Assembly: GCA_963817895.1 (NCBI GenBank)
Contig: CAWFQB010000004.1
Span: 128,001 to 192,000, forward strand
Source: an uncultured Chthonomonadaceae bacterium
GTDB lineage: Bacteria; Armatimonadota; Chthonomonadetes; Chthonomonadales; Chthonomonadaceae
Length of the DNA stretch: 64,000 bases
Direction: 5' to 3'
This document shows positions 20,877 through 63,537 of the stretch, in pieces. Both the position numbers and the translations under genes were made by a program. Positions within the stretch are counted from its first letter, which is position 1; each line of letters begins with the position of its first letter. The notes beneath the pieces are model-generated. The model did no database searches. It saw only the letters and a program-made list of their open reading frames with translations, and had not been told where the DNA came from.

Positions 20877-20983
20877 GGTATTCGGTATTCGGCGTTCGGT
20901 ATTCGGAAAATCCAATAGCAGACGAATTTTCTTTTACGGAATAAACTATCAGCCGAACACCGAACACCGGATACCGAATACCG
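20877..20983. repeat. Heptamer-arm inverted repeat (GGTATTC)n / (GAATACC)n
   Basis: About four 7-mers per arm (20877-20906 and 20953-20983); intergenic. Confidence 0.9.
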
Positions 20984-21007
20984 ACATTGGGAAGGGAGCG
21001 TGTTGAA

Positions 21008-22342
21008 ATGAGCGAAGAAATCAAAGGCGTATCGCGACGGCAACTGCTCGGTACGGCGGGGCTTGTGGGAACCAGTCTGGCGGCGGGAATTCTGCCGGTT
21101 CACGCGGAACCGATAACGCGAACGCGCAGAGTGGGCGCGAATGACAAAATTGTTCTCGGCTTGATCGGGTGCGGCGGCATGGGGCCAAGCGATATGCGGG
21201 AGCTGATGGGCAAGCCGGAAGTGGAAATGGCCGCGCTGTGCGATGTGGACAGCGCGCAAATGGGCAAGCAAGTCGGTAATGTGGAAAAGAAGTACGGTAA
21301 ATCGCCCGAACTGTTTTCCGATTACCGCAAGACTGCTGGAGCGCAAGGATATTGACGGCGTTATTGTCGGCACACCCGATCACTGGCACGCCCTGAACCT
21401 GATTCACGCGGTCGAGGCGGGCAAGGATGCGTACTGCGAAAAACCGATTTCGCACGACATCATCGAAGCGAAAACGATGGACGCAGCCGTGAAGCATTAC
21501 AATAAAATCGTGCAGGTGGGAACGTGGCAGCGCAGCACAGCGGAGTTCCATAGCGCGGTGGAGTACGTGCGGTCAGGCAAGTTGGGCAAAGTGGTTCTGG
21601 CGCGGGCATGGAAGGTGGAGGAGCGGGGCGCAGGCAAAGCGATGCCGACAACGCCACCCGCCTCGCTGGATTTCAATACATGGGTCGGGCCCGCCGCCAT
21701 GTTCCCCTATCAGGCGAACAAAGTTCACAACAACTGGCGCTGGTTCTTCAACACGGGCACGGGCAAAACCGGGGACTGGGGCGTACACATGATTGATATC
21801 GCCCTGCTCGGCATGAGCAAGGATACCGATCTGGTGATGCCGACCGAAGTGACCGCTTATGGCGGCAAAACTCACTTTCTGAACGATGACCGCGAAGCCC
21901 CCGACACGGTTCAGGCGATCATGCGCTTCAAAGACCCGGACTTTATGCTGCACTGGCAGACCGGGCAGGACTATCCGGGCGTCCCGATCACGGCACGGAA
22001 TGGGTGGGCGCGGACGGCAGAACCGTGCGCGTCTGGCGTGGCGGGTGGGAAATCCTCGACCCGAAGGGCGAACAGATGCCCAAAGAGCGCGTTCCCGCCA
22101 CCAACGACCACTGGCAAAACTGGCTGGACTGCGTGAAATCCCGCGAACAGCCCCGTTCCAATCTGGCTTCCATGGCGCAAACGACCATCACCTGCCACTT
22201 AATCAACGTGTCGCTGCTGGCGGGCGAAACCGTCCATTGGAGCAAGGAGAAGATGGATTTGGTCGGCAAAGCGGGCCGCAACTCTATCTACTACTCCCGC
22301 GAGTACCGCAAACCCTGGCATCTGCCGGTCTACAAGGCGTAA
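21008..22342 (+). CDS. Tat-exported Gfo/Idh/MocA oxidoreductase (2 frameshifts)
   Basis: SRRQLL Tat motif, GLIGCGGMG, GTPDHWH, YCEKPIS, DWGVHMID. Confidence 0.87.
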
Positions 22343-22354
22343 AGAAGAGGAGAG

Positions 22355-22564
22355 TGGGAACCGCGAAACACACGAAATAAACGAAAAATGACAAAATGAA
22401 GGCAAAAGGAAATAGACAGGATTAACAGGATTTTCAGGATTAAACAGGATTGCTCACAAGGAAGGTTTGACCTGATGTTCTTATCCGTGGGTATCCGTTT
22501 CATCCGTTCTATCCGTGGTTCGTATCTCCGCTTTTGACTTTTTTCGATTGTTTCGCGTTTCCCA
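22355..22564. repeat. Nested nonamer-arm inverted repeats
   Basis: Outer CGCGAAACACACGAAATAAACGAAAA / TTTTCGATTGTTTCGCG; inner (CAGGATT..)x4 and (ATCCGT...)x4. Confidence 0.8.
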
Positions 22565-22595
22565 TTCTTCTTTTCTGCGTATGTTGGAAACAACT

Positions 22596-24063: not shown

Positions 24064-24086
24064 ACGGCGGAAAGTTCCGTAACCAC

Positions 24087-24116
24087 TTGACAGAGATGTA
24101 AACGTTTCGATATAAT
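24087..24116 (+). promoter_or_regulatory. Sigma70 promoter with a LacI-like operator in the spacer
   Basis: TTGACA-18 nt-TATAAT; the spacer holds TGTAAACGTTT. Confidence 0.65.
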
Positions 24117-24241
24117 ACGCCGTTCGCTGTAGTAAATTGTTCATCAGGAAACGTTCGTCAGGAAACTATGGAAGCCTGCCCGCGCGCTCGACAGACCCTC
24201 CTGTACGAGTTGTTGTTTGGAAGCAGGCGAAGGAGAAATTC

Positions 24242-24793: not shown

Positions 24794-24833
24794 CTTGATT
24801 CTAATCTGTTTCTAAAAAGTTTAAAATACACCC

Positions 24834-24862
24834 TTGACAAATCCGAGCCGAGGGTGTATATT
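24834..24862 (+). promoter_or_regulatory. rRNA promoter P1
   Basis: TTGACA-17 nt-TATATT with an AT-rich UP region. Confidence 0.75.
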
Positions 24863-24976
24863 AACCTTGCTTCCATACACGGAGGTAGAAAATGGTCAAC
24901 CGACAATTTTCTACATACCGAAAATGGGAGTGATTTCAAAAGTAAAGACGGCGATGAAGAATGACAAAAATCGTCC

Positions 24977-25005
24977 TTGACAAATGAAATCAAGTATGGC
25001 ATACT
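24977..25005 (+). promoter_or_regulatory. rRNA promoter P2
   Basis: TTGACA-17 nt-CATACT with TGn extension. Confidence 0.75.
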
Positions 25006-25466
25006 AGAGTGTTGCCGCGAAGAACTCCAGAGTGAGCGCGGAAACAAATGAACCTTTACAATCACGTTTTTGACGTTTTGTGTGGACTTTGAGTTCTTGC
25101 GTCATACGTACCATAGTGACTTCGGAAATTGCAGTTGGCTGAAAGGCCGACTGCGGAATGAAACGAGCAAGGATTCGTTCTTTCCGCTTTCGAGTGGATG
25201 AACAAAAACAGTTTGTAATCTCGTCTTCTGGATTTATTCAGAAGTTCGAGTTCGCATCAAGTTAAATTGATGGAGAGTTTGATCCTGGCTCAGGACGAAC
25301 GCTTGCGGCGTGCCTAAGAAATGCAAGTCGAGCGGAAGCAGCAATGCTTTAGCGGCGAACGGTCGCGTAACACGTAAGCAACCTGCCCGAAAGACCGGGA
25401 CAACACTCCGAAAGGGGTGCTAATACCGGATGTGCCCACTCTCTTGCATGTGAGGGTGAGTAAAAC

Positions 25467-25570
25467 GCGCAAAAAACAGATATTAGGTAGTAGATATTAG
25501 ATATTAGGGAAAGCCCGGTTGGGTTCGCTCTAATATCTAATATCTAGTATCTCCTATCTGTTCCTGTGGC
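25467..25570 (+). repeat. IVS-like insertion in 16S V2 (helix 10 region), (AGATATT)n arms
   Basis: Arms 25475-25507 and 25530-25562 form a stem of about 32 bp. Confidence 0.88.
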
Positions 25571-25826
25571 GGCTTTTGGAGGGGCTTGCGGCCTATCAGA
25601 TAGTTGGTGGGGTAACGGCCTACCAAGTCATCGACGGGTAGCTGGTCTGAGAGGATGGTCAGCCGGACTGGGACTGAGATACGGCCCAAACTCCTACGGG
25701 GGGCAGCAATTAGGAATCTTGTACAATGGGGGCAACCCTGATACAGCGACGCCGCGTGAGGGAGGAAGGCCTTCGGGTTGTAAACCTCTTTTAACCGGGA
25801 AGAAACAAATGACGGTACCGGTGGAA

Positions 25827-25872
<46 letters not shown>

Positions 25873-26102
25873 GGCGAGCGTTGTCCGAAGTTACTGGGCG
25901 TAAAGCGCGCGTAGGCGGGTTGGCAAGTCCGCTGTGAAAGCCCGGCGCTTAACGCCGGAGGGTCGGTGGATACTGCCAGTCTTGAAGGTGCCAGGGGAAG
26001 ATGGAATTACCAGTGTAGCGGTGAAATGCGTAGATATTGGTAGGAACACCAGTGGCGAAGGCGGTCTTCTGGAGCACTCTTGACGCTGAGGCGCGAAAGC
26101 TG

Positions 26103-26136
<34 letters not shown>

Positions 26137-26219
26137 CAGCCCTAAACGATGGATACTAGGTGTCGGGGGTATCGACCCCCCCGGTGCCGCCGCTAACGCA
26201 GTAAGTATCCCGCCTGGGG

Positions 26220-26283
<64 letters not shown>

Positions 26284-26383
26284 TGTTTAATACGTCACTA
26301 ACCGTAGAACCTTACCAGGGTTTGACATGTGAGGCACCGGCATGAAAGTGTCGTTCCTAGCAATAGGACCTCAACACAGGTGT

Positions 26384-26449
<66 letters not shown>

Positions 26450-26700
26450 TCCTATGTTGCCAGCGAGTGAAGTCGGGAACTCTTAGGAAACTGCCGGGGT
26501 AACTCGGAGGAAGGTGAGGATGACGTCAAGTCAGCATGGCCCTTACATCCTGGGCTACAAACATGCTACAATGGACGGCACACAAAGGGATCCGAGACCG
26601 CGAGGTGGAGGCAATCTCAAAAATCCGTTCTCAGTTCGGATCGCAGGCTGCAACTCGCCTGCGTGAAGCCGGAATCGCTAGTAACCGCAGATCAGATAAG

Positions 26701-26748
<48 letters not shown>

Positions 26749-26782
26749 CTTGAGTTGTCTGCACCCGAAGTCGGTGGGGTAA

Positions 26783-26883
26783 CCCCCAACTGTAGGTTGT
26801 TAAGGTTTGCGGGTTGTAGGTGGTTAGGGAAGCGTTCCCTAAAAGCTTAGAACCTTAGAACCCTAATCCCCTAGAGTTGGGGG
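26783..26883 (+). repeat. IVS-like insertion at the 16S helix 44 tip (V9), octamer arms
   Basis: Replaces the usual short loop after GGGGTAACC; right arm is (CTTAGAAC)-like x4. Confidence 0.85.
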
Positions 26884-26918
26884 AGCCAGCCGCCGAAGGT
26901 GTGGGGAGCGAGAGGGAC

Positions 26919-26973
<55 letters not shown>

Positions 26974-30721: not shown

Positions 30722-30937
30722 GTGGCGAGGAATGACTGCTCGCTACATAAAAATACTTTCGCTTTTTGTCTCAAAATCCTTGACACATTCCGCAGCAGTA
30801 TTTTATCTGTCTGAGAGTTAGCAGGCGGATGATCTGTAGGTATGGAATTGATAGCAATCTAATCATTCGAACTCAAGGTTCCAGTTTCATATATGAGCGA
30901 CAGCGGTAATTCCGGTAGAATCAGGACCGAGAGTGTC

Positions 30938-33900
30938 ATGGATACACAACATTGCTTGCAGGCGCTAGCGGCACATGGCATTACAGAAGCCGATAGCGCT
31001 ATGCTGTTGCCTCTATTGTTGGATGGATTGCGTCTCAGCCCCGACTCGGATCGCGCTTTTGCCGCGTTTGAACGCTGGCTTGCCGCGCTGGAAACGCCAC
31101 GCGACTATCTGCCCCTGTTGCAATCGCTGGATGTCCTCAACCGCTTCTGCCTCGTCACCGGAAGCAGTCAGTATTTTGCCGACCTGCTGATTCGTAATCC
31201 TGACGATATTCATATTCTTGTACACCCGGAAGGCTATGGCGAACGGGAGACGCCCGCGCATCGCTATCGCGAAGTCTCCCGACTGATGGAGGGCTGCGAC
31301 ACACCCGAACAGCAGCGCGACGTTCTGCGCCAGTGGAAAGCCCGCGAGATGCTGCAAATCGGTGTGCGCGACCTGCTCGGACTGGACGATATGCCCACAG
31401 CCGCCCGCGAATTTTCTAATCTGGCCGATGCTTGCGTACAAATGGCGCTGGAGATTGCATACGCGACGCTGGAGGAGAAAGGAGAAGGGAAAAAGGAAAA
31501 AGCAACGGATAGTGGGTCTTTCTCCTTTCTCCTTTCTCCTCTCTCCTCTCCTCTGACCGTTTTTGCTCTGGGCAAGCACGGCGGGCAGGAACTCAACTAC
31601 AGCAGCGACATTGATCTGATTTTCGTTCATGCCGATGGATTGCCCGCTTACATCACATTGGAAAGCGGCAGGCGAATGGAATCGCCTGCGTATCTTGCGA
31701 AATTGGCGGAAACGTTGATTAGCGTTTTGAGTGAAGACGGCGGGCAGGGGAATGTGTTCAGGGTAGACATGCGCTTGCGCCCGGAGGGACGGTTTCGGGG
31801 CGTTATCGCGGTCGCTGACGGGGTATCGCGCTTATTATGAAAAGTGGGCGGAAAACTGGGAGCGGCAGGTGTTGCTTAAAGCGCGGTTTGTAGCCGGAAA
31901 TCGCGCGCTTGGCGACGCTTTTATGGCGATGATTGCGCCGCTTGTGTACCGCCGCCAGATTTCGAGCGCGTTTCTCAATGATATTCGTGTCAACAAACGG
32001 CGTATCGAGCAGACCTGCGCCAAAAAGGGCGAAACCGAAACCAACATCAAAACGGGGTGGGGCGGCATCCGCGATATTGAATTTATCGTACAACTGCTGC
32101 AATTAGAGTTCGGGGCTACGCATCCGCGTTTGCGAACTCCCAATACGCTTACAGCCCTGCGTCGCCTGAACGAAGCCAACTTTTTGACGGATAAGCAGAC
32201 CGAAGACCTGGAGGATGATTACCGGTGGCTGCGAACGCTGGAACACCGGCTTCAACTGCTGCACAACTTTCAAACGCAAACTCTGCCGCCCGAATCCAAA
32301 CCACAGGAGCGCGAGTCTTTAGCCCGTCGTATGGGCTTTGCCGATCTTGAAAATTTTGAGGCGGAACTGAAAACTCGCCGGACGCGCGTTCGTAACTATC
32401 TGGACACGCTGTTTTACGATCAGGAACGCCGCTTTTTCCCCGCAATGCCCGCTGCTGTTGATCCCCTCTGGAAGGATGTTTCCATACTCCTTGCCGATCT
32501 GGAAGGGGAAGAAGGGCAAATACAACTGCGCGAGAAATTGACGCAGGCCAGTTTTCGGGATGCATCCAACGCCCTGCGCCTGCTGGAACTCATGCGCCAC
32601 AGTCAAGAGTTTCAGGACGCGCCGCCGGTTGTTTCCGAACGGTTCCTGAATCTCGCGCACTCTCTGCTGGACACGATTGCGCATAGTCCCGACCCTGACG
32701 CGGCTCTGGCGGGCATCGAAGCGCTTGCCGTGCCATATCGCGACCCGCTGTACATGCTGTTCGAGGGCCGTCCCGATATTATGTGGCGGCTTGTCCGGCT
32801 TGCCTGCGTCCCCGTCCTTATCAATAGCCTCGCGAAACATCAGGAGTGGCTGTACCCTCTGCTCAACGAGGATGAAGCGGTTCCCGAAGCCCTGCGCGAA
32901 CCGGGCGAAGATACGGAAAACAGCGAAACTCTTTCCGCCCGCTATGTGCAGGAGTTGTCCGGTCGTATCGGCAAACTGCGCAATCGGGACGCGCAATGGA
33001 AGATGATCGCCCTGTTTTATCAGCGGGAACGGCTGCGTATCGGGGCGCGGGACGTATGGGATGAGGCCGATGTTGCCGACGTGATGAAACGCCTGACCCG
33101 ATTGGCCGAGTCCACGCTGCATATTCTGCTGACGCTATGCGCCCAATCGCGGGCTGAAGCGCATCCTCGCCCCGAATGGGCGCAAACCGTCCTGAACCGG
33201 GTTGCCATAGTCGGGCTTGGACGATTGGGCGGGGCGGAACTCAATTACAGCAGCGATTGGGACATGCTGTTCGTGTATGACGTGGAACGCCCGCGCGATG
33301 ACGAATCGCGCGGCGAACGGAACGCCCTTGCCGCCGGGTTAGCGCAGGACGTACTCGCCGCCATTGACGCGCTGAACCTGCGGGGCGCGAATATCGAGGT
33401 AGATTTGCGCTTGCGCCCGTGGGGAAGCAAAGGCAATCTGATTTATACCACGCGCGGCTATCTGGATTATTTCAAAAATCACGCCGAAACATGGGAGCGG
33501 CAGGCGGTGTTGAAATCGCGTTATGTGGCAGGCAATCCAACCGTAGGCAGGCGATTGGAGCGCGTGTTGCGGGCCGTCAGCGCGGGCAGAGGCGTAACGC
33601 CCGAAGAGGAATCTGCCATCCACGCCATGAAAACCCGCATCGAAACGGAACGCTTAAAACCACAGGAACGCGAAACCGATTTGAAACTCGGCAACGGCGG
33701 CCTGAGCGACATAGAATGGCTGGCGCAACGGCTGCAATTACGGCACGGCCCGCAGCACCCGAATGTTCGCGCAACCTCCACGCTACGCGCCCTTGACGCG
33801 CTGGAAACCCTTCACGCCCTCGACCGCTCGGAAGTCAACGTTCTCACATCCGCGTACCGCCTCCTGACGCGCGTTCGCAACGCCATGACCCTGCTTGCCG

Positions 33901-34064
33901 GAACCCCGACCAACGTATTCCCCGCCGACCCGCAGCGCAGGCGCGTCCTTGCCCGTTTGCTCGGCTACGAAGACCGCCTCGTCGTCCGCGCCGAACAGAT
34001 GCTGCAAGAGGACGTGCAGGCCGACATGCAGGAAGTCCGCCGCATCTTCAGCCGGAGATTTTGA
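30938..34064 (+). CDS. glnE: Glutamine synthetase adenylyltransferase (frameshift near 31800)
   Basis: Two NTase domains: GKHGGQELNYSSDIDL...VDMRLRPEG and GRLGGAELNYSSDWD...VDLRLRPWG; GGIRDIEF. Confidence 0.92.
31472..31551. repeat. In-frame heptamer hairpin (GGAGAAA)n/(TTTCTCC)n in glnE
   Basis: Encodes EEKGEGKKEK...SFSFLLSPLSSP. Confidence 0.85.
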
Positions 34065-34069: not shown

Positions 34070-34334
34070 ACCACCCGCTGCGCTAGAGACACAGAGAGGG
34101 AACACAGAGAGAAGATACAAGATACGAGAGAAGAGAACGAACCGCAAAGGGGCAAAGGAACGCAAAGTGGAACCCACAAGCACAACAAGAGTTAATGACT
34201 GATTTCCAGAGGCTTCTGTATTCCTTTCTCTTTTCTGTTCTTTGCGTTCTTTGCCCCTTTGCGGTTCTCCTCTCTTTGTCTTTCTCGTATTGGCTTTTCC
34301 TCGGTGTCTCGGTGTCTCTAGCGCAGCGGGTGGT
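34070..34334. repeat. Nested nonamer-arm long inverted repeat
   Basis: Outer ACCACCCGCTGCGCTAGAGACAC.. / ..GTGTCTCTAGCGCAGCGGGTGGT; inner (CGCAAAG..)x3 / (CTTTGCG..)x3. Confidence 0.92.
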
Positions 34335-34403
34335 AAATTCTTGTATAGCGGTTTGGCAGCGGAATGGGTATACTTTGGACATATTGCGGGGGCAGGGGGA
34401 AGT

Positions 34404-35098: not shown

Positions 35099-37757
35099 AT
35101 GGAAAATACAGCCCCATTCGAAAATTCTAAATCGAAAATCGAAAATCCTTATGTTGACTCGCTGTGGGAAGAGTATGCCGAGATTGATATTGCGGATGTT
35201 GTGGTAGATATTGACGCGCCGGATTTGCAGGATTCGTACTCGTACCGCGTTCCTGAAATTTTGCAAAATACGCTTGTCGCAGGCGCGTGTGTGCATATCC
35301 CGTTTGCGGGGCGGGAGACTTTGGGCTACGTGCTGGCGCGGCGCAAACTGCCCTCCAACGATCCGCTGTGCGGCAAACTGAAAAGCATTATCGGGATTGT
35401 GGAAGACGCCATAACCATCAATTCCGAACAACTGCACATCATTCAGTGGATGAGTCAGCGGTATGTGTGCGATCTGCTGGACGCGCTGCGCTGTGTCGCG
35501 CCCGCGAATTTAGGCGCGCGGGTGGCGACGGTTGCGCGGCTGGCGGATACAAGTTACCGGGGCGTAGATGTAGGCGCGTCCATTCCGCAGGCGCATGTTC
35601 TGGAAACGTTGCGGGCATTGGATGGCGAGGCGGAGGTGGACGCCCTGCGCGAAGCCGCGCATCTGCCCAACTTTGCGGGCGCGTATGCCGCCCTGCTGAA
35701 AAAAGGATTGCTGATCGAATCCCGCACCATTGTTCGCGCCAAAACAGTGGGCAAAATGCGTCGGGCGTACACACTGGGCGCGGCGGCAGTCGCGCTGACA
35801 CAGGGCGGGAGCGTGGGCAACCGCAGCCCGCAGCAGCAGCGCATCCTCAACGAACTGGTACAACGCGCCCGCCACAATGAAGGCCCCATTCCCGGCGATG
35901 AACTGGTACGGGTCAGTCAGGCGTCTGCCCGCGTCCCTGCGCGGACTGGTGGACAAGGGACTGGTGCAGGCGCATGAGATCATGGTGCGCCGCGCGCCCG
36001 TATCCGCGTCCGGCGAACGCACGGTCGCGCCCGTTCTCACGCCCGGACAGCAGAACGCGACGGACAAATTACGCGCCTGTCTGGAAAGCGGCGAAACGCA
36101 AACCGTTCTGCTGTTCGGCGTCACGGCAAGCGGCAAAACTGAAGTGTATCTCAATGCCATTGCGCACACGCTGGAACAGGGCCGTAGCGCGATTGTGCTT
36201 GTGCCGGAAATCGCGCTGACCGCGCAGATCGTGGATACGTTTGTCGGAAGGTTCGGCGAACAGGTGGCCGTTCTCCATTCCAAATTATCCGAAGGCGAGC
36301 GGCACGACGAGTGGAGGCGGATGCAGGCGGGCAAGGCGCGTATCGTGGTCGGCGCGCGTTCCGCCATTTTCGCGCCTGTGCAAAATGTCGGTCTGATCGT
36401 GATGGATGAGGAACACGAGGCGTCCTACAAGCAGGAGAACACCCCCCGTTATAACGCCAAAGACCTCGCCATGGAACGCGCCCGCCTGAGCCGCGCCACG
36501 CTTGTTCTTGGCAGCGCGACGCCTTCGTTGGAGAGTTACTTTGCGGCTACGCCACAGGGAGTAGGGAGTAGGGAGTGGGGAGTAGGAAAAACCAGCGCGC
36601 GTATCGAAGAGCCGCGAGACTCGTATGCAGCGAAAAACCATCATAAAGCGAACTCCTACTCCCCACTCCCTACTCCCTACTCCCTTATCACCATGCCTGA
36701 CCGCATAGACAACCGCCCCCTGCCCCGCGTGGAGGTGGTGGATTTGCGCGAAGAGTTTAAGAAGCAGAAGACGTTGTTTTCCGAGCGGCTGGTTGCGGCG
36801 ATGATGGAGCGATTAAAAAAGAAGCAGCAGACCATTCTGTTTTTGAACCGACGCGGCTACGCGCAATTCGTGCTGTGCCGGGACTGCGGCTGGACGGCGA
36901 AGTGTCCGAATTGCGCCGTGTCGCTGGCGTACCACAACTATGAGCGTTCGTTGAAGTGTCACCATTGCGATTACAACGGGCGCGTACCCCTGAAATGCCC
37001 GGACTGCGGCGGCATGAAGGTGAAAGCGTTCGGCATCGGCACGGAAAAGGTCGAGGAAGAGGTTTTGCGCGTGTTTCCCACCGCCCGCGTCGCCCGCATG
37101 GATCGGGATACCACTTCGCAAAAGGGGGCGCATACCCGGATTATGCGGGCATTTCGGCAGGGCAACTCGGACATTCTTATCGGGACGCAGATGGTGGCGA
37201 AAGGGCTTGATTTCCCCAACGTTACGCTCGTCGGCGTTATCAGCGCGGACACGGCCATCAACATGCCGGACTTCCGGGCAGCCGAACGCACGTTTCAATT
37301 GCTGACGCAGGTGGCGGGGCGCGCGGGGCGGGGCAACACGCCCGGTGAAGTGATTATACAAACGTTCAGCCCCGACCACTACGCGGTGCAGGCGGCCATT
37401 CAGCACGACTACCCCCGCTTTTACAAGCAGGAGATTCTATTTCGGCAGGAATTGAAGTATCCGCCGTACAGCCGTTTCGTCAACCTGATTTGCGCCGATG
37501 AGATCGAAGCCAAAGCGCAGGCGCGTTCTAACGCCCTCGTTGTCGCGCTCGAACGCCTCAACCCGCCGGATGTGGAGATCATCGGGCCAAGCCCCGCGCC
37601 GCTCGCCCGCCTGAAAAACCAGTACCGCTTCCACGTCGCCCTGCGCGCTCCGGTAGACTATCCGCTTTCCGAACTGGTGCGCTCCGCCATTGCCTGCCTT
37701 ACTCCGTCTGACCGCCTGGGCTTGTACGTGGACATTGATCCTTTGAGCATGGCGTAG
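35099..37757 (+). CDS. priA: Primosomal protein N' (frameshift near 35935)
   Basis: GVTASGKTEVY, DEEHE, GSATPS, Zn-finger CxxC pairs, GTQMVAKGLDF, QVAGRAGR. Confidence 0.95.
36556..36685. repeat. In-frame heptamer hairpin (GGGAGTA)n in priA, perfect 32-bp arms
   Basis: 36556-36587 is the exact reverse complement of 36654-36685. Confidence 0.95.
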
Positions 37758-47518: not shown

Positions 47519-48731
47519 CCCGGAAAACAAAATATGGGCGATGCTCGGCGGGCGTCCCGTCATCGAATGGACACTGGCCGCGTTCCAGAACCATCCAGGC
47601 GTGGACAGCATCACGATTGCCGCCGGGGAAAGCGAAATCGAGCGATTGCGGGAAACTGTCGTTCAATTTTCCAAAGTAACGGGCGTGGTTGTTGGCGGCG
47701 CGACGCGGGCCGAGTCGGTGCGCAACGGCCTGAACGCGCTGCCTCCGGACTCCGAACTCGTCCTTGCGCATGACGCCGCCCGTCCGCTCGTCAGCGCGGA
47801 ACTGATTGGCCGCGTGATTGAAGCGACGGCGCGGGTGGGCGCGGCGGTTCCCGGCCTGCCCCTGTCCGACACCATAAAACGCGCGGACGCGAACGGAATT
47901 GTACGCGCCACGCTTCCCCGCTCTATCACCAAAAACGGCGAAACACTTTCCGGCCTGACAGCGGTGCAAACGCCACAGGGCGCGCGCGTGTCTCTGCTTC
48001 GCGTCAGGCGTATGCCCGTTTTGATTTCGCCCAATCCGAGCCGACCGACGAAGCCTCCCTTATCGAAGCGCTTGGCGAACCCGTCCAAATCGTTCCCGGC
48101 GACCTGCGCAACCTGAAAATCACACGGCAGGAAGACCTCATAATTGCCGAAGCGTTGGGTATTCAGGTGTTCGGTTATTCAGGTATTCAGAACAATGCCG
48201 CGTCTTCCCCTGAACAACCCAATCCCGAATACCTGAACACCGAAACCCGAACCGGCCTGGGCTACGACGTTCACGCATTTGCGGAGCGTGGAAGCGGGGC
48301 GCAGGCTGTTTTTAGGCGGAATTGAGATACCGCACGACCGAGGGTTGGAGGGGCATAGCGACGCGGACGTGCTGCTTCACGCGGTTTGCGACGCGTTGCT
48401 CGGCGCAGCCTCGCTCGGCGACATCGGGATTCTGTTTCCCAACACGGACGAGGCGTACAAAGGAATCGCCAGCCTGAAATTGCTGGAAGTGGTTGCCGAA
48501 CGACTGCGCGAAGCGGGGTGGCAAATCGTCAACATAGACGCGACGGTTGTTGCCGAAGCGCCCAAACTGATGCCGCACCGCATTCAGATGCAGGAGGCGA
48601 TGGCAGCGTGTTTACGGATTGAACCAAATCGCGTCAGCGTCAAGGCAACTACTTCTGAAAAATTGGGTTTTGTCGGAAGGCGCGAAGGCATGGAAGCGAC
48701 GGCCATAGCCACTGTTGTACGCGGCATCTAA
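47436..48731 (+). CDS. ispDF: Bifunctional IspD-IspF (frameshifts near 48005 and 48280)
   Basis: AAGQARRFG, HDAARPL, VQTPQ; NLKIT..ED reads in one frame into RTGLGYDVH; GHSDADV, GDIG, KATT.E. Confidence 0.88.
48157..48253. repeat. In-frame octamer hairpin (GGTATTCA)n forming the IspD-IspF linker
   Basis: Encodes GIQVFGYSGIQ...PEQPNPEYLNTET. Confidence 0.8.
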
Positions 48732-49652: not shown

Positions 49653-49786
49653 TTCACCACAGAGGCACAGAGACACAGAGGTTTCACAGAGGGATTGGAG
49701 AGAAGGGAAGAGAACAATTGATTTTCTCCAGTTTCCTCTTCTTAAATCTCTGTGAAACCTCTGTGTCTCTGTGCCTCTGTGGTGAA
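49653..49786. repeat. Nonamer-arm inverted repeat (CACAGAG..)n, perfect 39-bp arms
   Basis: 49653-49691 is the reverse complement of 49748-49786; lies between convergent genes. Confidence 0.95.
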
Positions 49787-51938: not shown

Positions 51939-52047
51939 GGGGAGTGGGTAGTAGGGGGTAGGGAGTAGTTAGTGTGCTTTGTTACGAACGAAGCCCAATT
52001 ATAGAATTCGTACTTTCCTACTCCCTATTCCCCACTCACTACTCCCT
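51939..52047. repeat. Heptamer hairpin (GGGAGTA)-type between ybaB and recR
   Basis: G-rich arm 51939-51968; C-rich arm 52011-52047. Confidence 0.85.
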
Positions 52048-52417
52048 ATCCCAACAGTCCCGGCGGCAGGTTGAGGTCGCCAAGCCCGCCGGTGATCTCT
52101 TTCATGCGGGCTTCCTGACCGGCCTGCGCCTGGGCCGTCGCTTCTTTCGCGGCGGTGATAATCAGGTCTTCCAGAATCTCCACGTCGTCGGGGTCCACGA
52201 CGGCGGGATTGATTTTCACTTCCACGAGATGGCCGTGTCCGTTGACGGTGACAGTCACCATGCCGCCGCCGGCCTGCGCGGGAACGCGCAATGTTTCCAG
52301 ATCGTTTTGCAGTTTCTCGGCGTCTTCCTGCATCTTTTGCGCCTGCTTCATCAACTTCTGCATGTCGCCGAAACCCGGCATTCCGCCGCCACCGCCACCG
52401 CCGCCAAATCGTGCCAT
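52046..52417 (-). CDS. ybaB: YbaB/EbfC nucleoid-associated protein
   Basis: MKQAQKMQ, AGGGMVTVTVNG, DPDDVEILEDLI. Confidence 0.93.
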   Translation of the reverse strand: MARFGGGGGGGGMPGFGDMQKLMKQAQKMQEDAEKLQNDLETLRVPAQAGGGMVTVTVNGHGHLVEVKINPAVVDPDDVEILEDLIITAAKEATAQAQAGQEARMKEITGGLGDLNLPPGLLG

Positions 52418-52543: not shown

Positions 52544-54883
52544 TTAGCCCTTTTCGGTATGGACGACCTGACCGCCAAAAATGTCCAGCACTTCCTTCAA
52601 CATGCCGATGCTGCGGTCTTCTTCGGGTTGCGGCGTGTAGGCGGGTGGGGCGGGAGTGGGTTTCGCTGCCCCGTTGCCGTTGCCATTTCCATTAGTGGAA
52701 GCCGCGACGCCGGAAACGCCGGAAGCATTGTTGGGGGAGGGAACAGGGGAAATGTTCGCGCCATTAGAGCTACCGGCAGGCGCGGCGGGCTGTAAAATAG
52801 CAGTGTCAGCCGTCCGAAAGTTATTTGCGCCATCGTTGGGAACACTGTTGGAAGTGGTGGGCGGCGCATAGGAAGTGGGTGGCGGCGCGGCGGTCGGAAC
52901 TTCGTAATCCATCACCCGCGTCGGGCCGGTCGGCGCGGCAATAATCGCGCGGAGAATCCAGCAGCGTTCCCGTTCCCATGCTTGCGGCCATGCCTGTTCC
53001 ATTGGAAGGCGGGTCAGTCGGCAATTTCGCGCCCACACCCGCGCCCCCGGAACCGTTCTGCCCGTCCAGAAGGCATTGGATGCGATAGCCTTCTGTTTTC
53101 AAGCCCTCATTAATCTTCTTTTCAACTAACTCTTTGGCCTTGTTCTGGATACGGTCACGGGCAAACGCTTCTTTGAACGAAAGAATAATCGTATTGCCCT
53201 GCAACGCGCTTACCTGCGCTTTTTCCAGAAACCCGCCCCCGGCAGGACTAATTTTGTGTACCGATTTTACAATGCGATCCCATGATCGGCGAATCACGTC
53301 CAGCGTAACGCCTTCGGCAAACTGATGCCCGCTGAAATCGGGAGCGGGAGAGGCAGGATTGCCGTTGCCCGCGCCATTGGAAGCGTTGAACGTCGCTGTC
53401 GTGGAAACGGCGGGCGTGGATTCCTGTATAAGTGGAACAGCGGTTATCGTCAGCGGCGGGGGCGCAAGGATCTCTTCCGGTTCCGTTTCCAGCGCGTCAG
53501 CCTCGTCCTCGTCTTCGTCATCCTCGTCTTGCGTTGCGCCGTTTGCGCCGAATGAGGCAGTGGACGCGAGGGTTTGCGCGGTTTCCTGCGTGGGCGGGCG
53601 CGGCACGTTGGTCGGGGAAGCGGCGACATTGGCGCGGGAGGGCAGTTCAATGTCGTCCGTGTGCTGCAATGGGGAGGATTTGCCGTTCGCGGCAGCAGTC
53701 TGCGTTTGCGGACGCGCGGAAGGCGACGCTGTTTTCTCCTGCGGGCGGATGGCGGGGCGGGCTTGCGGTTCCGCCGTAACAACGCCCTGCCCGATCTGCA
53801 TCAGGCGCACAAGGGTTCGTTCCAGAATCCAGCGGTGCTGATTGCTATTGCGGCACTCGCGCTCCGCTGCCGACAATTCGCCCATCATTTCCAGCAGGGA
53901 AGCGGGAGCGAAAACACCTGCCTGCGATTTGAGTAGGGCGAGTTTGTCCGCGCCCAACTCCTGCGCGGCTGCCTGTTTCGCGCCCGTCGCCAGCAGCATC
54001 AGGTCGCGCAAATGTCCGGCAAGCGCGGTCAGCAGTTGGCGAACGTCCGTACCGCTGTCCACAAGGTCGGACGCGATTCCCAGTGTCGCCGCCCAATCCC
54101 CCCGGCCAGCGTTTCCGTCACCTGCGCCAGCATCTCGGTTCCCACCGTGCCAAGCGCGCGGTGTACAATCGCAGCCGTGATATGCCCGTCCGAATACGCG
54201 AGTACCTGCTCCAGAATGGAAAGGGCGTCGCGCCACGAGCCTTCCGCGCTGCGGGCAACCGCCTGTACCGCTTCCGGTTCGGCAGTAAACCCTTCGGCCA
54301 GAATCACCCGCTCGATGGACGCGCTCAAATCATGCAGGCTGCCCCGCTTGAACTGATAGCCCTGACAGCGCGAACGAATCGTAATGGGAACTTTGTGGTA
54401 CTCCGTAGTGGCGAGAATAAAGACGACGTGGGGCGGCGGCTCTTCCAGCGTTTTCAACAGGGCGTCGAACGCTTTGGCTGAAAGGTCATGCACTTCGTCA
54501 ATGATGTACACTTTGTACCGCGCTTCACTCGCGGCGTATTGCACATTTTCAATGATTTTTTCGCGCACATTGTCCACGCCGGTTTCGCTGGCCGCGTCAA
54601 TCTCGACCACATCCATGCACGTATTCTCGCGTATGGACACGCACAATCGGCACACCCCGCACGGTTCGGCGGAAGGGCCATCCTGCGCCACGCAGTTCAG
54701 GGCGCGGGACAGCAGGCGGGCGGTAGACGTTTTGCCGCAACCCCTCGCGCCGTGAAACAGGTAGGCGTGGGCAATGCGTCCGGTCCGAATCGCGTTTTGC
54801 AGCGTGGTCGTCACGGATTCCTGTCCCATCAACTCGTCGAAGTTCTGGGAGCGGTATTTGCGGTAAAGGGCGATGTAGGACAT
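52544..54883 (-). CDS. dnaX: DNA polymerase III gamma/tau (frameshifted into 3 or more pieces)
   Basis: ALYRKYRSQ.F, GARGCGKTS, EIDAAS, DEVH, SRC; C-terminal VLDIFGG. Confidence 0.95.
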
Positions 54884-54886: not shown

Positions 54887-54997
54887 AGTAGGGAGTAGGG
54901 AGTAGGAAGTAGGGAGTAGAGAAAACGCGGCTGGTTGTGCCGCTCACCCCGCATGACGCGGAGCCTTCTACTCCCTACTCCCTACTCCCTACTCCCT
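54887..54997. repeat. Heptamer hairpin (GGGAGTA)n between ffs and dnaX
   Basis: Arms 54887-54920 and 54967-54997. Confidence 0.92.
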
Positions 54998-55016
54998 GTT
55001 TTTGCCTTCGATGCTC

Positions 55017-55118
55017 AGAGCCGGGGTGAGGAACGTACTCGGGAGTTCAGACTTAAGGCTGCTGGGTTCCCCCCCTGACACTGGTTCATCCAACCGCCGA
55101 TACGCCCGCCCCGGCTCT
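55017..55118 (-). ncRNA. ffs: Signal recognition particle RNA (4.5S)
   Basis: Domain IV TCAGG-GGG-GGAA-CCC-AGCAGC; terminal stem AGAGCCGGGG/CCCCGGCTCT; TATAAT upstream; ffs-dnaX-ybaB-recR synteny. Confidence 0.92.
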
Positions 55119-57970: not shown

Positions 57971-58024
57971 GAGAACAAAAGAAGGAATACGCACATCGAA
58001 ACGATAGAAAAGGCGGCTCGCCTG

Positions 58025-58741
58025 TTGTTGGAAAGTGACGCGGTTTTGTTCGATCTGGATAACACGCTGATTGAAACCCATATAGACTTTGCGGAGATGA
58101 AGCGGAAGACGCTGGCGTTGGGCGTGGAGTGGGGCGTGAATACAGAGACTATGGGCGATATGGACATTCTTGCCATTGTCGAAAAAGTGACAGCGATTTT
58201 GCAGAGCATTACCATGAGCGGAGCGCATAAAGATTTCCACGAAGCCGCGTATGCGATGCTGGCCGCGCAGGAGGCCGAACAGTGCGCCGACCCCGTTTTG
58301 CTGCCCGGAGCGTCCGAACTGCTGTCGTGCCTAAATCGGCGCGGCGTTCCCATCGGCGTAGTCACGCGCAATTGCCGCATGGTGGCGGACCGTCTGCTCG
58401 TGGAGGGCGATTTGCAGTGCGACGTTCTGCTGGCTCGAGAAGATGCGACTCAGGTCAAGCCGCATCCCGATCATCTGCGCGACGCCCTGCGCGTCCTGCG
58501 AACCAAATTCCCCGAACGACGCTTGCAATCGCAAAATTGCCTGATGGTGGGCGATCACGTCATGGACATTCAGGCAGGCCGCGCCGCGCAAATGCGTACG
58601 CTGGGTTTACACCGACAACACCCGCCCGAAGCGTTCGCCGATTGCCCGCCCGATGTGCTGCTCAAGGATGTTGCCGAACTCTGGGAAGGGGTGTCAGGTG
58701 TCAGGTGTCGGGTGTTGGGAAAGGGGCGTAACTTGCGTTAA
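58025..58741 (+). CDS. HAD family hydrolase
   Basis: FDLDNTL, VVTRN, KPHPD, MVGDH.MD. Confidence 0.9.
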   Translation: MLESDAVLFDLDNTLIETHIDFAEMKRKTLALGVEWGVNTETMGDMDILAIVEKVTAILQSITMSGAHKDFHEAAYAMLAAQEAEQCADPVLLPGASELLSCLNRRGVPIGVVTRNCRMVADRLLVEGDLQCDVLLAREDATQVKPHPDHLRDALRVLRTKFPERRLQSQNCLMVGDHVMDIQAGRAAQMRTLGLHRQHPPEAFADCPPDVLLKDVAELWEGVSGVRCRVLGKGRNLR

Positions 58742-58831
58742 ATGTTTCCATTTGACAGCAAGCGCGAAATGCGCGTATGGACAATTCAAACACCCAAACA
58801 CCCGACACCCGACACCCGACACCCGACACCC
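58688..58831. repeat. Heptamer hairpin (GGTGTCR)n/(CACCCGA)n spanning the HAD 3' end and GT2 5' end
   Basis: Arms 58688-58719 and 58787-58831. Confidence 0.9.
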
Positions 58832-59700
58832 TCCTCTCTATTTGCATCGTCAACTGGAACACGCGCGATCTGCTGCTCGACGCGCTTGCCAGCATCTATA
58901 ACGCGCCGCCAAACTTTGGGTTTGAAGTGGTTGTTGTGGATAACGCTTCGCATGATGGCAGCGCCCTCGCGGTACGGGAACGGTTTCCGCAGGCAACGCT
59001 TATCGCCAACGAAGAAAATATCGGGTACGCGGAGGGCAACAATCAGGCGATGCAGCGGGCTTGCGCCGCGTATAATCTGTTATTGAACCCCGATGTGATT
59101 TTGCCTCCGGGGGGATTGGCAAAAGCCGTCGCGTTTATGGAACAACATCCTGACGCGGGCGCATTGGGCGTCCGGCAGGTACACCCGGACGGCAGTTTGC
59201 AGAAGTCAGTACGCGGATTTCCCACGCCGCTCACCGTGCTGTGGGAACTGATCGGCCTGAGTCGCCTGTTGTCCCACAGCCCCTTCTTCGGCGCGTACCG
59301 CATGACATGGTTCGATTACAGGCATGTTGCGGAAGTGGATCAGCCGATGGGCACATTTCTACTATTGCGCCGTCAAACCATAGAAGAGATTGGAATGATG
59401 GATCTGGCCTTCCCGATTTTCTTCAACGAAGTGGATTGGTGTTTGCGCTGCAAGCGGGCGGGCTGGAAAATCTGGTTCACGCCCGATGTCGAAATTATCC
59501 ATTATGGTGGCGCAAGCACGATACAGGTGGGCGGCGCGATGGCATGGGAGTCCCGGCGCGGGCTGCTGCGCTTTTATGCCAAACACTACCGCACCATCTG
59601 GCTCTGGCCCCTGCGCCTGCTTATCGCCGCCGCTTCCTGGCCCCATGCCTGGCTGCAAGCGCGAAAAAGGCAGAAGCAAGTGATGAGTGATGAACAATGA
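58777..59700 (+). CDS. Glycosyltransferase family 2 (rhamnosyltransferase-like)
   Basis: SICIVNWN, VVDNAS.DGS, LLNPD, FFNEVDWC. Confidence 0.92.
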   Translation: MDNSNTQTPDTRHPTPDTLLSICIVNWNTRDLLLDALASIYNAPPNFGFEVVVVDNASHDGSALAVRERFPQATLIANEENIGYAEGNNQAMQRACAAYNLLLNPDVILPPGGLAKAVAFMEQHPDAGALGVRQVHPDGSLQKSVRGFPTPLTVLWELIGLSRLLSHSPFFGAYRMTWFDYRHVAEVDQPMGTFLLLRRQTIEEIGMMDLAFPIFFNEVDWCLRCKRAGWKIWFTPDVEIIHYGGASTIQVGGAMAWESRRGLLRFYAKHYRTIWLWPLRLLIAAASWPHAWLQARKRQKQVMSDEQ

Positions 59701-59748
59701 GTGATGAGTAACATCCCATTCATCATTCAGCACTCCTCGTTCAGCATT
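59679..59748. repeat. Heptamer hairpin (AGTGATG)n/(TTCATCA)-like at the GT2 3' end
   Basis: Arms 59679-59709 and 59718-59748. Confidence 0.78.
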
Positions 59749-59765
59749 GTTGATGGAGGTGTTTC

Positions 59766-60935: not shown

Positions 60936-61584
60936 AGTTGTACCGATTGTGGAAGGCCATGGTGATGTCGGCGCAGTGCCTGTTCTCTGCTACAAACTGT
61001 TGAGGGATAGTCAGCGGTACGATGTTCAGGTAGATGTCGCCATTGATGCGAAGGGGCGCAGTAATCTGACCAAAAAGGGCGGGTTAGAGCAGTTGATTGA
61101 ACGCGCCTGGAACCGACCGGGGTGTAATGCTGTTCTGATACTCGTGGATGCGGATGATAATTGCGCGGTTCATCTGGCAAGGGATTTTACAAGGCGTATT
61201 CTGGCGATGGGCAATCCGCGCTGCGCCGTTGTTGTAGCAGTCGCTGCAATGGAATACGAAGCCTGGTTTCTGGCAATCATGGAAACACTGGCAGGTCAAA
61301 TTGTTAGAGACGGTCTGATGTTACCGATAGAAACCAGCTTCACAGGAGATGTTGAAGCAATCAGGGATGTAAAGGCATGGATAACCAGCCAACTGCCCCG
61401 TGTAGGTGGATACAGGCGGGTAGCCTACGATGAAGCACAAGACCAACTTACTATGACGCGCTTGATTGACCCAACACTGGCCCGCGCCAACTCGCGCTCG
61501 TTTCGGCGGCTGTGCCATGCTATCGAACAAATTCTGGACGCGGTTGATAACAACAAGATTGTGGTGACGCCGGAAGCGGTATGA
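60928..61584 (+). CDS. DUF4276-like TOPRIM-fold partner protein
   Basis: IVEGHGD, LVDADD, EYEAWFLA, SRSFRRL; overlaps the ATPase stop. Confidence 0.78.
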   Translation: MSKVVPIVEGHGDVGAVPVLCYKLLRDSQRYDVQVDVAIDAKGRSNLTKKGGLEQLIERAWNRPGCNAVLILVDADDNCAVHLARDFTRRILAMGNPRCAVVVAVAAMEYEAWFLAIMETLAGQIVRDGLMLPIETSFTGDVEAIRDVKAWITSQLPRVGGYRRVAYDEAQDQLTMTRLIDPTLARANSRSFRRLCHAIEQILDAVDNNKIVVTPEAV

Positions 61585-61608
61585 ACAACCGTAAAAGAAC
61601 AGGATGGG

Positions 61609-62361
61609 ATGATAGCTGTGGAAGAGACAGGGATGATACGGGTGCAGGAAGCAGACTTTGAGGAGGTAGCGGCGCAGCATGTAGACTTTTTCCTGCAAGT
61701 CAAAGGCATGTCCCTGATTGTGGGCGATGCCGCCCTGAACAAAGCCCGCGAAGTGCAGCAGCTTGTCAACGAACTGAAAGCCATCGGCGCGACGGACGCG
61801 GATATTAAATTGCTCGGCGTACAGGCGGACGCTTCCACCGGCATTTTAGGCCGCCACTCTTCCGCAACCTACTCGCTGAAAGCGCATTGCGCGAAATTGG
61901 AAACCATGCCGGATTATCTCGGCGTCATCACATCGCAAAAGAACACAACCGTCAACTATCTGCAATGGGATTACGGCGACCTGCGCGACATACAATTGCG
62001 CCTGCTGGATCGCTGCATCGAATGGGCAAATGAAAAAGCGCAGCGTATTGCAAAAGGCTTGAATGTAACCATTGCTGGCGTGTACCGGTTTACAGATGCA
62101 ATAAGTACATCAGAGGGAGATTTCACGTCTGCTGAACAGAGCATGGCGATGATGAGACGAAGACTTCAAGAGCAGGAGTTTGACGAGCGAGACAGACCTA
62201 GCGGAATGAACGCAAATAGGAAATACGCACTTGAGGAGAGACCACGTCGCATTACTGTGCAGGAACTCGGAATGGAGATTTCTCACAACAATCATGTTGT
62301 TATTGGGGTCAGCATCGAGTACCGAATTGCGCCGCAGAGTAACCAATCCGGCCAATCATAA
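61609..62361 (+). CDS. SIMPL (DUF541)-like protein
   Basis: L..IG..DADIK, A.EKAQRIAKGL.V.I, C-terminal VSIEYRI. Confidence 0.62.
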   Translation: MIAVEETGMIRVQEADFEEVAAQHVDFFLQVKGMSLIVGDAALNKAREVQQLVNELKAIGATDADIKLLGVQADASTGILGRHSSATYSLKAHCAKLETMPDYLGVITSQKNTTVNYLQWDYGDLRDIQLRLLDRCIEWANEKAQRIAKGLNVTIAGVYRFTDAISTSEGDFTSAEQSMAMMRRRLQEQEFDERDRPSGMNANRKYALEERPRRITVQELGMEISHNNHVVIGVSIEYRIAPQSNQSGQS

Positions 62362-62466
62362 TCAATGCGCGACGCTGACAGTTTAGCCTTCTCCCATTCT
62401 GGGAGAAGGTGGGCGAAGCCCGGATGAGGGCGCAGTCTCGTAGCCAACGCAGAAAGCCGTAACCAA

Positions 62467-63537
62467 GTGGATGTATCCGTTATAATTCTCAATTGGAATA
62501 CCCGCAAACTGCTACAGGAGTGCCTGCAAACCCTGACACATCCGCAAATTGGCGTTGATGTGGAAGTAATTGTTGTGGACAATGCCAGCAGCGACGACAG
62601 CCGCGACATGGTACGGCGCGATTTTCCGCAAGTGACGCTGATTGCCAATCCCATGAATATAGGCTTCGGCGCAGGTAACAATGTAGGCATTCCCGCGTCA
62701 ACCGGTCGGTACGTGCTGTTCCTGAACTCGGATACACAGGTGACGGAGGGCGCGTTGAAGGCAATGGTGGATTACGCCGACGCCAATCCCGATGTCGGTA
62801 TTCTCGGCCCCAAACTGCTCAACGCGGATGGCAGCCTGCAATACTCGTGCCGCCAGTATCCCAATCTCGCAACCGGCTTTCTGCACAACACGCCGCTCGG
62901 ACGCCTGCTGCCCAAAAATCGCTTCGCCGCCGACTACCTGATGAAGAATTGGGATCACGCTACGCCGCGCAACGTGGATTGGGTATCCGGGGCCGCCCTG
63001 ATGATCCGCCGAACCCTGCTCGACCAAATCGGCGGCTTCGATGAAGATTATTACATGTATTGCGAAGACGTAGATTTGTGCTGGCGGGCCAATCACGCAG
63101 AATATAGACAGGGAGAAGAGGAGACAAGGAGACAAGGAGACAACAACGTCTCCCTATCTCCCTATCTCCCTATCTCCCTATCTGCTACATGGTGCGTTAC
63201 TTATTTACCGGATGCCGTTATCTATCACTACATCGGCAAAAGCAGCGATCTGGCTCCGACGCGCATGACGTATGAGTTTCATCGCAGTCAGTATCTGTTT
63301 TATAAGAAACACTATCGGGCGCAAACGCCTGTTTTGCTGCGCCCGCTGATTTTGCCCGGCATTGCTCTGCGCGCGGTCGGGCAGATGGCGCGCTGGCGCG
63401 TCCGCTACTGGCAGCGCAAAATTATGAAGTTGCGCAAAAAGCCCGCGCCGATTGAAAAGAACATTGTACCCTTGACGAACGCGGCGGCGGCCCCCTCGGA
63501 TTCTTCCGGTTTGCGCCGCCCCGGAGATGCTTCGTGA
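62467..63537 (+). CDS. Glycosyltransferase family 2
   Basis: SVIILNWN, VVDNAS.D, FLNSD, DWVSGAA, GGFDE.Y.MY.EDVDLC. Confidence 0.93.
   Translation: MDVSVIILNWNTRKLLQECLQTLTHPQIGVDVEVIVVDNASSDDSRDMVRRDFPQVTLIANPMNIGFGAGNNVGIPASTGRYVLFLNSDTQVTEGALKAMVDYADANPDVGILGPKLLNADGSLQYSCRQYPNLATGFLHNTPLGRLLPKNRFAADYLMKNWDHATPRNVDWVSGAALMIRRTLLDQIGGFDEDYYMYCEDVDLCWRANHAEYRQGEEETRRQGDNNVSLSPYLPISLSATWCVTYLPDAVIYHYIGKSSDLAPTRMTYEFHRSQYLFYKKHYRAQTPVLLRPLILPGIALRAVGQMARWRVRYWQRKIMKLRKKPAPIEKNIVPLTNAAAAPSDSSGLRRPGDAS
63106..63183. repeat. In-frame octamer hairpin (GGAGACAA)n/(TCTCCCTA)n in GT2
   Basis: 78 nt (26 codons) encoding RQGEEETRRQGDNNVSLSPYLPISLS. Confidence 0.9.

Follow-up and report, generated by a model that had tools for sequence, protein, structure and literature searches.

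A 64,000-nucleotide stretch from an uncultured Chthonomonadaceae bacterium (GenBank assembly GCA_963817895.1, contig CAWFQB010000004.1, positions 128,001–192,000; hereafter the window) contains members of a large dispersed family of elements whose arms consist of about four tandem copies of a short word, those listed for the window mostly forming inverted pairs around a spacer. Comparison with congeners shows that the sites of these elements persist while their contents change. On balance, this comparison of genomes leads us to regard the family as probably a selfish gene-plus-repeat system, in which sites are overwritten by element-to-element replacement in waves of horizontally acquired cassettes.

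The source assembly (G000) comprises 7.48 Mb in 14 contigs and is 81% complete; the two congeners compared, G001 and G002, are 97% and 91% complete, respectively. The 16S rRNA of G000 has an Armatimonadota-like appearance. G000 and G002 diverge by 37.5% over 65,507 four-fold sites. The comparison with G002 covered 1.38 Mb of its 8.0 Mb, with loci anchored by both flanks and a 16S site counted twice, and that with G001 covered 0.38 Mb. Since the congeners, which were assembled separately, carry elements at matching positions (spelled alike at 49653 and 59679), and since both 16S copies of G000 contain both inserts, the arrays are most probably not an artefact of assembly.

Arm architecture and turnover at conserved sites

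A scan of G000 for matched inverted pairs of arrays with a period of 7–10 returned 375 pairs (period 7, 250; period 8, 100; period 9, 17; period 10, eight) involving 62 distinct words. An order-5 Markov simulation of 1 Mb gave five arrays and no pairs, compared with 262 arrays and 44 pairs in a real 1-Mb contig. A first-pass annotation of the window had proposed a dispersed family defined by its architecture, with the G-rich arm first irrespective of strand, and both proposals are borne out: the left word has more G than C in 366 of the 375 pairs, equal numbers in eight and fewer in one, so that polarity is not random genome-wide. Its description of the family as hairpins proved too narrow. 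When arrays of words with four or more occurrences were grouped, 1,139 loci resulted, of which 581 are single arms, 460 have a G-rich followed by a C-rich arm and three have the reverse order, the remainder being nests; in 129 of the 460 polar loci the arms are non-complementary. Because the polarity (460:3) persists in these 129 pairs, the unit of the system is the polar arm rather than the hairpin.

Arms hold about 4.3–4.4 units (7-mer median 4.4), and the lengths of 7-mer arms, pooled from G000 and G002, peak at 30–31 bases (237 of 684 arms), which corresponds to four units and the beginning of a fifth. There are two classes of element: class I with 7/8-mer arms and class II with irregular 8–10-mer arms. 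The order of layers in nests is consistent, with four reciprocal cases among 99 neighbours. Local hopping was considered and rejected, as neighbours within 2 kb share words in six of 52 cases with 4.3 expected.

At 128 orthologous sites of G000 and G002, an array is present in G002 at 116: the word differs at 80, is the same within one base at 22 and corresponds in part at 14, with no array at the remaining 12. Among 26 sites anchored in G001, seven carry an array. At one 23S site, each of three species has a word of its own, and the rRNA copies of G000 (two 16S sites and one 23S site) correspond to short helices in relatives. Gene-carrying cassettes (L002, L129, L189 and L190) are matched in the congeners by elements without a gene, which may belong to either class, or by sites that are empty; at the L003 site only one arm has been exchanged, and a variant unit of the L189 cassette arm is found again in a gene-less copy. 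The insertion system envisaged by the first-pass annotation is thus only part of the picture: empty alleles do exist, for example at the tip of the 16S 3′ helix, in priA and at 63106 in G001, but the sites are mainly old and overwritten rather than freshly filled. Nor was target duplication seen by eye at the empty sites inspected (the 16S helix tip, 23S site B, 63106 and the L189 site, against divergent congeners).

Two further observations concern these sites. In the rRNA of G001, long hairpins free of repeats occupy the 16S 5′ site and two places in the 23S (L040–L042), with slight differences between operons; these are possibly decayed elements. The site of one G000 four-helix cassette, which follows a ychF-like gene, is occupied in G002 by a toxin–antitoxin-like gene pair with one C-rich arm (L209; G002:C24:82671–83578) and in G001 only by a terminator-like hairpin with an AATGC motif.

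Copies are tolerated in frame in glnE, priA, IspD–IspF and a glycosyltransferase and within the 16S and 23S rRNA, as had been proposed. With coding status assigned by a dicodon model and stop-free reading forming part of the definition of in-frame, read-through in coding DNA occurs at 58 of the 129 non-complementary loci against 14 of 331 hairpins (Fisher p = 2e-24). Words that are stop-free both ways are used in genes in the more hydrophilic orientation in a ratio of 178:20, and the frame is preserved in G002 at 19 of the 21 in-gene sites that carry other words there. The host may select for perfect stems in rRNA and for frame-keeping, stop-free, hydrophilic arms in proteins.

Enclosed genes, words and spacers

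All six G000 genes of the four-helix-bundle family PF05635/TIGR02436 (two genes) and the GxxExxY family PF13366/TIGR04256 (four genes) sit between such arms, and every one scores above the curated profile cut-off (2/2 and 4/4), in agreement with a link that the first-pass annotation had drawn. The four-helix gene L001 has a stop directly after its likely start. What we take to be the D-x-E-x-K-type motif of the GxxExxY proteins looks intact in all four copies. Class corresponds to gene: 7/8-mer arms enclose PF05635 genes and 9/10-mer (8–10) arms enclose GxxExxY nuclease-fold genes. Among relatives, 26 four-helix loci have arms of period 7 (19) or 8 (five) or none (two), and 33 GxxExxY loci have arms of period 9–10 (12) or 8 (one), irregular inverted repeats (14) or none (six). 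Each resident cassette arm matches 7–80 places in the genome.

A wider set of 173 four-helix loci was drawn from GTDB (80), from the organism's own phylum (58) and from 35 of 80 viral contigs. A word was found at 124 of these loci, an inverted repeat only at nine and nothing at 33, with contig ends at seven; the upstream word has more G than C in 97 cases, equal numbers in 21 and fewer in six. Four-helix cassettes with word arms occur on 30 of the 35 IMG/VR contigs examined (L332–L366), which possibly reflects a transfer route or host DNA inside those contigs. In one clade of four-helix proteins, with 57 rows from many phyla (support 94 in a quick tree from a short alignment), the words of 40 rows contain the motif YAG[AGT]A, compared with none of the 67 other rows. 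The L002 word does not match this motif. A PF05635 relative, XCC0516, has five chains in its structure (PDB code 2gsc) and is described as a homopentamer in the accessible part of the source (PMC4990558).

Three of the five resident words are enriched in their own genome: that of L189 (AGTAGTC) at 21.7 versus 0.4 per Mb, L129 at 30.4 versus 1.7 and L002 at 7.4 versus 0.7. It is because of this enrichment and the coupling of clade and word that we suppose words to spread in waves. G001, which has no PF05635 hit, contains 19 strong 7/8-mer arrays per Mb, compared with 167 and 288 in the other two genomes; the density of 9/10-mer arrays is alike in the three (10, 13 and 14 per Mb). The survey of gene abundance also took in 100 kb from each of four further genomes, in which G023 (two genes) has 11 7/8-mer arrays and G013 and G014 (no gene above the cut-off) have none. 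The only reverse transcriptase hit in G000 has a retron of type XIII as its best match, is unlinked to the four-helix genes and is present in G001. Such a retron type XIII-like reverse transcriptase (L186, G000:C6:132948–133580; L187; L188) occurs in all three congeners, with a different word array near each.

Most copies enclose a spacer of 45–65 bases or a nest of further arms. A clean hairpin is present in both G000 and G002 at 36 sites, 25 of them with both spacers of at least 39 bases. Six of these 25 pairs score at least 22 and 18 score at most 18; the neutral expectation at the four-fold rate is 74% and 16%, respectively, although the true neutral rate may be higher. Same-site spacers therefore appear to be mostly unrelated. 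Spacers are nevertheless akin across loci, words and genomes: a near-palindromic consensus is matched (z > 3) by 13 of 14 AGTAGTC spacers of G002, the family from which the consensus was built, by 20 of 161 spacers of G000 and by two of 100 genomic controls. AATGC stands at one spacer end in 75 of 250 cases and at both ends in four. Spacer copies are on average about 50% apart, nearest neighbours being mostly 50–70% identical and two neighbouring G002 spacers 82% alike; the arms are 96–97% perfect.

Several origins for the spacers were tried and set aside. Mutagenesis of the kind found in diversity-generating retroelements (DGRs) is ruled out by the lack of adenine bias in changes from the consensus (A 0.29, C 0.37, G 0.36, T 0.33; 13 spacers). 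Remnants of four-helix genes were not recognized when 250 spacers were compared with 26 four-helix cassettes (best local score 24.4, shuffled 23.6). CRISPR-like capture was rejected, the spacers being mutually related across loci and words; phages were not screened.

Elements of the window and neighbouring genes

All 14 elements listed by the first-pass annotation are real (Table 1). Inverted arms with 14–39 paired bases are present at each coordinate, and folding z scores range from −2.8 to −17.2 against base shuffles. The period and polarity described as shared need correction: the elements at 22355, 34070 and 49653 belong to the irregular 8–10-mer class, the arm at 49653 having G equal to C and the outer arm at 34070 having G below C. 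Those at 22355 and 34070 are multi-word nests, and 48157 and 59679 are weak; the arms at 63106 consist of two similar, non-identical words instead of one. The inner ACAGGATTA arm of the nest beginning at 22345 resembles an arm of the GxxExxY cassette L006.

Table 1. Word-built elements of the window, with their counterparts in two congeners
Positions	Strand	Element	Context	Congeners
20877–20982		Class I hairpin, GGTATTC-type 7-mer	Junction of DNA methylase and oxidoreductase genes	G002: GGTTTCA arms
22345–22580		Nest with outer arms rich in purines, middle arms of class II and an inner ACAGGATTA arm	Between oxidoreductase gene and pth	Middle layer also in G002
25475–25562	+	Class I hairpin, AGATATT	Variable 5′ region of 16S rRNA, presumably near helix 10	G002: AGGCATT-type arms inside same outer stem; G001: another long hairpin; short helix in every other relative read
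26783–26883	+	8-mer hairpin	In place of the loop that caps the penultimate 16S helix, presumably helix 44	G002: GAATGAT-type arms; loop of 3–4 bases in G001 and all other relatives read
31472–31556	+	Class I hairpin, GGAGAAA-type	In frame within glnE	G002: longer non-complementary nest, in frame; G001: short linker
34070–34345		Nest of three layers: outer of class II, middle AGATACG, inner CGCAAAG	glnE–plsY gap	
36556–36685	+	Class I hairpin, GGGAGTA	In frame within priA	G002: two other words in two priA copies; G001: empty
48155–48252	+	Weak 7/8-mer hairpin, GGTATTCA-type	In-frame linker joining IspD and IspF domains	
49653–49786		Class II hairpin, CACAGAG-based, 39/39 paired	Between convergent genes	G002: element shared
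51939–52054		Class I hairpin, GGGAGTA	ybaB–recR gap	G002: GGCATCA; G001: decayed GGGGTCA-type arms
54887–54997		Class I hairpin, GGGAGTA	Between signal recognition particle RNA (55016–55116, − strand) and dnaX	G002: GGTAGAC arms, related spacer; G001: class II element
58688–58832	+	Class I hairpin, GGTGTCA	Spacer contains stop of haloacid dehalogenase (HAD) gene and likely start of glycosyltransferase gene	G002: spacer retained, arms 8-mer
59679–59750	+	Weak class I hairpin, AGTGATG	Covers stop codon of glycosyltransferase gene	G002: same word
63106–63186	+	8-mer element, GGAGACAA / GGGAGATA arms	In frame within glycosyltransferase	G002: different nest; G001: empty
15097–15127		Single C-rich arm, other-strand word GGGAACA	Absent from first-pass annotation	
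15944–15973		Single G-rich arm, AGTTGTT/AGGTTGTT	Absent from first-pass annotation	

Several genes of the window are split over two frames at places outside the elements: glnE (30893–34064), priA (35099–37757), ispD/ispF (47370–48731), dnaX (52821–54883) and the oxidoreductase gene (20987–22380). These splits are probably assembly indels. RNA-level bypass of stops or frameshifts was also considered and gave no sign, since in-gene copies keep the frame and the splits lie outside the elements. G002 has two priA regions (L053 on C36 and L054 on C61) whose words differ around a related spacer at one common in-frame site, which may represent a duplication or a mixture of strains. The 16S gene at 25267–26970 has no 23S downstream and is followed by a calpain-like gene and then by an insertion sequence (IS) integrase-core gene; G001 resembles G000 at this locus, and the second 16S copy of G000 sits in a full operon. 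A small palindrome at 62383–62431 is distinct, not built of words, and has many matches in G001 and G002. Elsewhere in G000, about 16 tRNA genes form an array on a single strand (C4:227900–230050) with two word hairpins between genes and G002 elements at the same places, and ARAGORN calls a tRNA-Sec and a CUA-anticodon tRNA at C1:245013–245110 and C11:90528–90599.

The proposed replacement, its alternatives and known systems

The reading that we favour would work as follows. Its unit is a polar arm of word copies with the G-rich strand toward the centre of the site, and a full cassette consists of such arms around a four-helix gene (7/8-mer) or a GxxExxY gene (8–10-mer). Elements would first insert at the tips of hairpins, at the junctions of genes and in the loops of proteins and would duplicate no target, as seen at a few empty sites. 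The site then persists, its content being replaced from another element as a whole, in its inner part only or in one arm only. Replacement may proceed by copying in a manner resembling gene conversion, primed by the mutually similar G-rich arms. Cassettes would arrive horizontally, and with each protein favouring its own word every arrival would set off a wave of that word. The four-helix pentamer may recognize the word, with five core motifs per arm; GxxExxY may cut, and a mutagenic step may alter the spacers. We infer that the system is active today and that the enclosed proteins act in trans. A wider proposal, which we put forward only tentatively and consider rather doubtful, is that of a transposase-free selfish class in which a travelling pentamer reads five cores of its own DNA or RNA word and drives mutagenic overwriting of whatever older element it meets, with hundreds of sites per genome, rRNA helices and core-protein loops among them, being rewritten wave after wave; it would unite heptamer repeats, the STRRs (short repetitive sequences in tandem) and the intervening sequences (IVSs) of rRNA that bear open reading frames (ORFs).

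A number of observations weigh against replacement, which is itself read from the comparison of genomes. Words at the same site are closer than chance (2.61 versus 3.14 ± 0.14), and at L004, where the gene was kept, the word of either arm has drifted; because of these two findings, part of the word change is best put down to drift in place. Remnants of a predecessor word are rare (12 matches over 128 sites, without clear outer or inner bias), too few to serve as proof of direction. The motif YAG[AGT]A was chosen after the words had been inspected, kin are not independent, and the joint inheritance of gene and arms weakens the coupling of clade and word. Two of the five resident words, those of L190 and of the broken L001, show no enrichment in their own genome, the four commonest words of G000 have no resident gene, and G005 has one four-helix gene and no 7/8-mer array in 100 kb. 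Only three of 235 spacer pairs exceed 80% identity, whereas simple recent copying would leave more, so that the overwriting model needs to be supplemented by spacers that are hypermutable or by donors from outside. The hydrophilic bias, finally, is weaker yet present between co-directional genes (148:88).

Some of this would be expected if old fixed insertions evolved in place by slippage and quasi-palindrome template switching, with drifting spacers and no need of a protein. Variant units are shared with an arm's own partner above other copies (325 versus 239 ± 11; at the mirror position 163 versus 102 ± 8), which, with the closeness of same-site words, the concerted drift at L004 and the few spacers kept while the arms differ (54887 and 58688), speaks for this explanation. 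We nevertheless consider it unlikely. Genome-wide convergence on a genome's own words, as for AGTAGTC, the kinship of spacers between loci, the fixed arm length, the exchange of gene-carrying for gene-less elements and of one class for the other, and the polarity that is fixed in non-complementary pairs all stand against it. Drift in place contributes but cannot yield genome-wide word sweeps or class exchange.

The arms might instead be newly synthesized, cut 3′ ends being extended in a telomerase-like fashion with about four G-rich words, templated on cassette RNA by the pentamer, and then joined. This would account for invariant polarity with non-complementary arms, for pure arms around strongly divergent spacers and for a fixed length with a mode of 30–31 bases. 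The four-helix protein also bears a weak likeness to Avd, whose model gave 21.8 bits (E = 2e-4), below the cut-off of 80. The cassettes lack a polymerase, the sole reverse transcriptase hit is of retron type and is shared with element-poor G001, the spacers show no adenine bias and irregular variant units are inherited between loci, which together make new synthesis improbable. We give about the same low credence to a regulatory layer kept by the host at the RNA level, with the words serving as four-helix protein sites or as RNase III stems at junctions. Many elements do lie at operon junctions beside start and stop codons; according to the respective papers, the related element of Coxiella is cut out by RNase III (PMC4990558) and a regulatory role is proposed for TAACTGA repeats (PMC4679880). 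Neither word nor spacer is conserved at a site, however, G001 does without many of the elements, and PriA, GlnE and IspDF acquire junk peptides from the copies that are read in frame. Element direction relative to transcription is split 16:13, which rules out a tie between the two. Cut-and-paste miniature transposons mobilized by a host transposase and landing repeatedly in tolerated hot spots would fit the inverted ends, the high copy number and the consistent nest order, but are very improbable given single-arm exchanges and the lack of both a terminal sequence shared across words and near-identical copies, and are largely refuted by the missing target duplications at empty sites.

Parts of the system can be recognized among known elements. 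STRR heptamers of cyanobacteria occur in a structural RNA, and as dispersed tandem 7-mers of about four units, some in inverted pairs, the present arrays answer to the description of STRR and heptamer repeats. The elements resemble REPINs, the paired repetitive extragenic palindromes associated with REP-associated tyrosine transposases (RAYTs), in being hundreds of two-armed non-autonomous elements of about 130 bases linked to a rare partner gene; they differ in that their arms are tandem words, many without GTAG, rather than GTAG/CGTC-tagged palindromes, and in that the partner genes lie within the arms and are not HUH transposases, with many copies in frame. Like the Rickettsia palindromic elements, they give housekeeping proteins peptides that are read in frame from repeats and lie in surface loops; unlike them, they have no conserved sequence or peptide, differ in loop content between congeners and are often not palindromic. 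With DGRs they share a related pentameric four-helix fold (Avd) and highly variable short tracts, but no adenine-biased change, DGR reverse transcriptase or template repeat was found. MITEs, the miniature transposable elements with inverted repeats, are likewise a poor match: there are no shared terminal repeats or near-identical copies and the enclosed genes are TIGR02436 and TIGR04256, IS ends not having been screened.

The closest published relatives are rRNA IVSs and heptamer repeats. The Coxiella burnetii 23S IVS, according to the accessible text, has an S23p four-helix ORF, a 28-bp terminal stem and heptamers upstream of the start (PMC4990558); to that extent ORF-bearing 23S IVSs share with our elements the PF05635 family, inverted repeats, heptamers and location in rRNA helices. 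The two 16S copies and one 23S copy of G000, and these copies only, are stem-loop insertions of the IVS kind. They are gene-less, both PF05635 genes lying between protein genes; nearly all other copies are outside rRNA and mostly gene-less, there is a second, GxxExxY class, and site contents turn over. In the portions available, Xanthomonas and Nostoc heptamers are described as mostly of four units, those of Xanthomonas with 70–75 convergent inverted pairs, intergenic and in genes, at conserved sites and without a link to mobile elements (PMC4692102), and the Beggiatoaceae TAACTGA repeats as 7-base repeats (PMC4679880). As far as those texts go, a single word is treated for each genome and no partner gene is named; here there are dozens of words, two gene families, non-complementary pairs and exchange of words. 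No paper linking the arms, both gene families and same-site turnover was found in a search that did not cover subscription journals and supplements. The parts are thus published, and the whole system is undescribed within the literature searched; it is labelled a new class because it does not show those diagnostic traits of MITEs, REPINs and DGRs that were tested.

The heptamer repeats have long been puzzling, as have the S23p/four-helix and GxxExxY families, and all of them lack a mechanism. This genus offers a measurable handle on them, in the form of fixed sites with changing words, polarity that outlasts pairing, a clade–word code and arms whose length would suit a ring of five subunits. 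Recurring peptides read from the arms are repeat products, a caution for annotation. If our reading is true, a repeat system rewrites non-coding DNA, the expansion helices of rRNA and protein loops on the time scale of species, and a family of small proteins would have a word specificity that can be learned.

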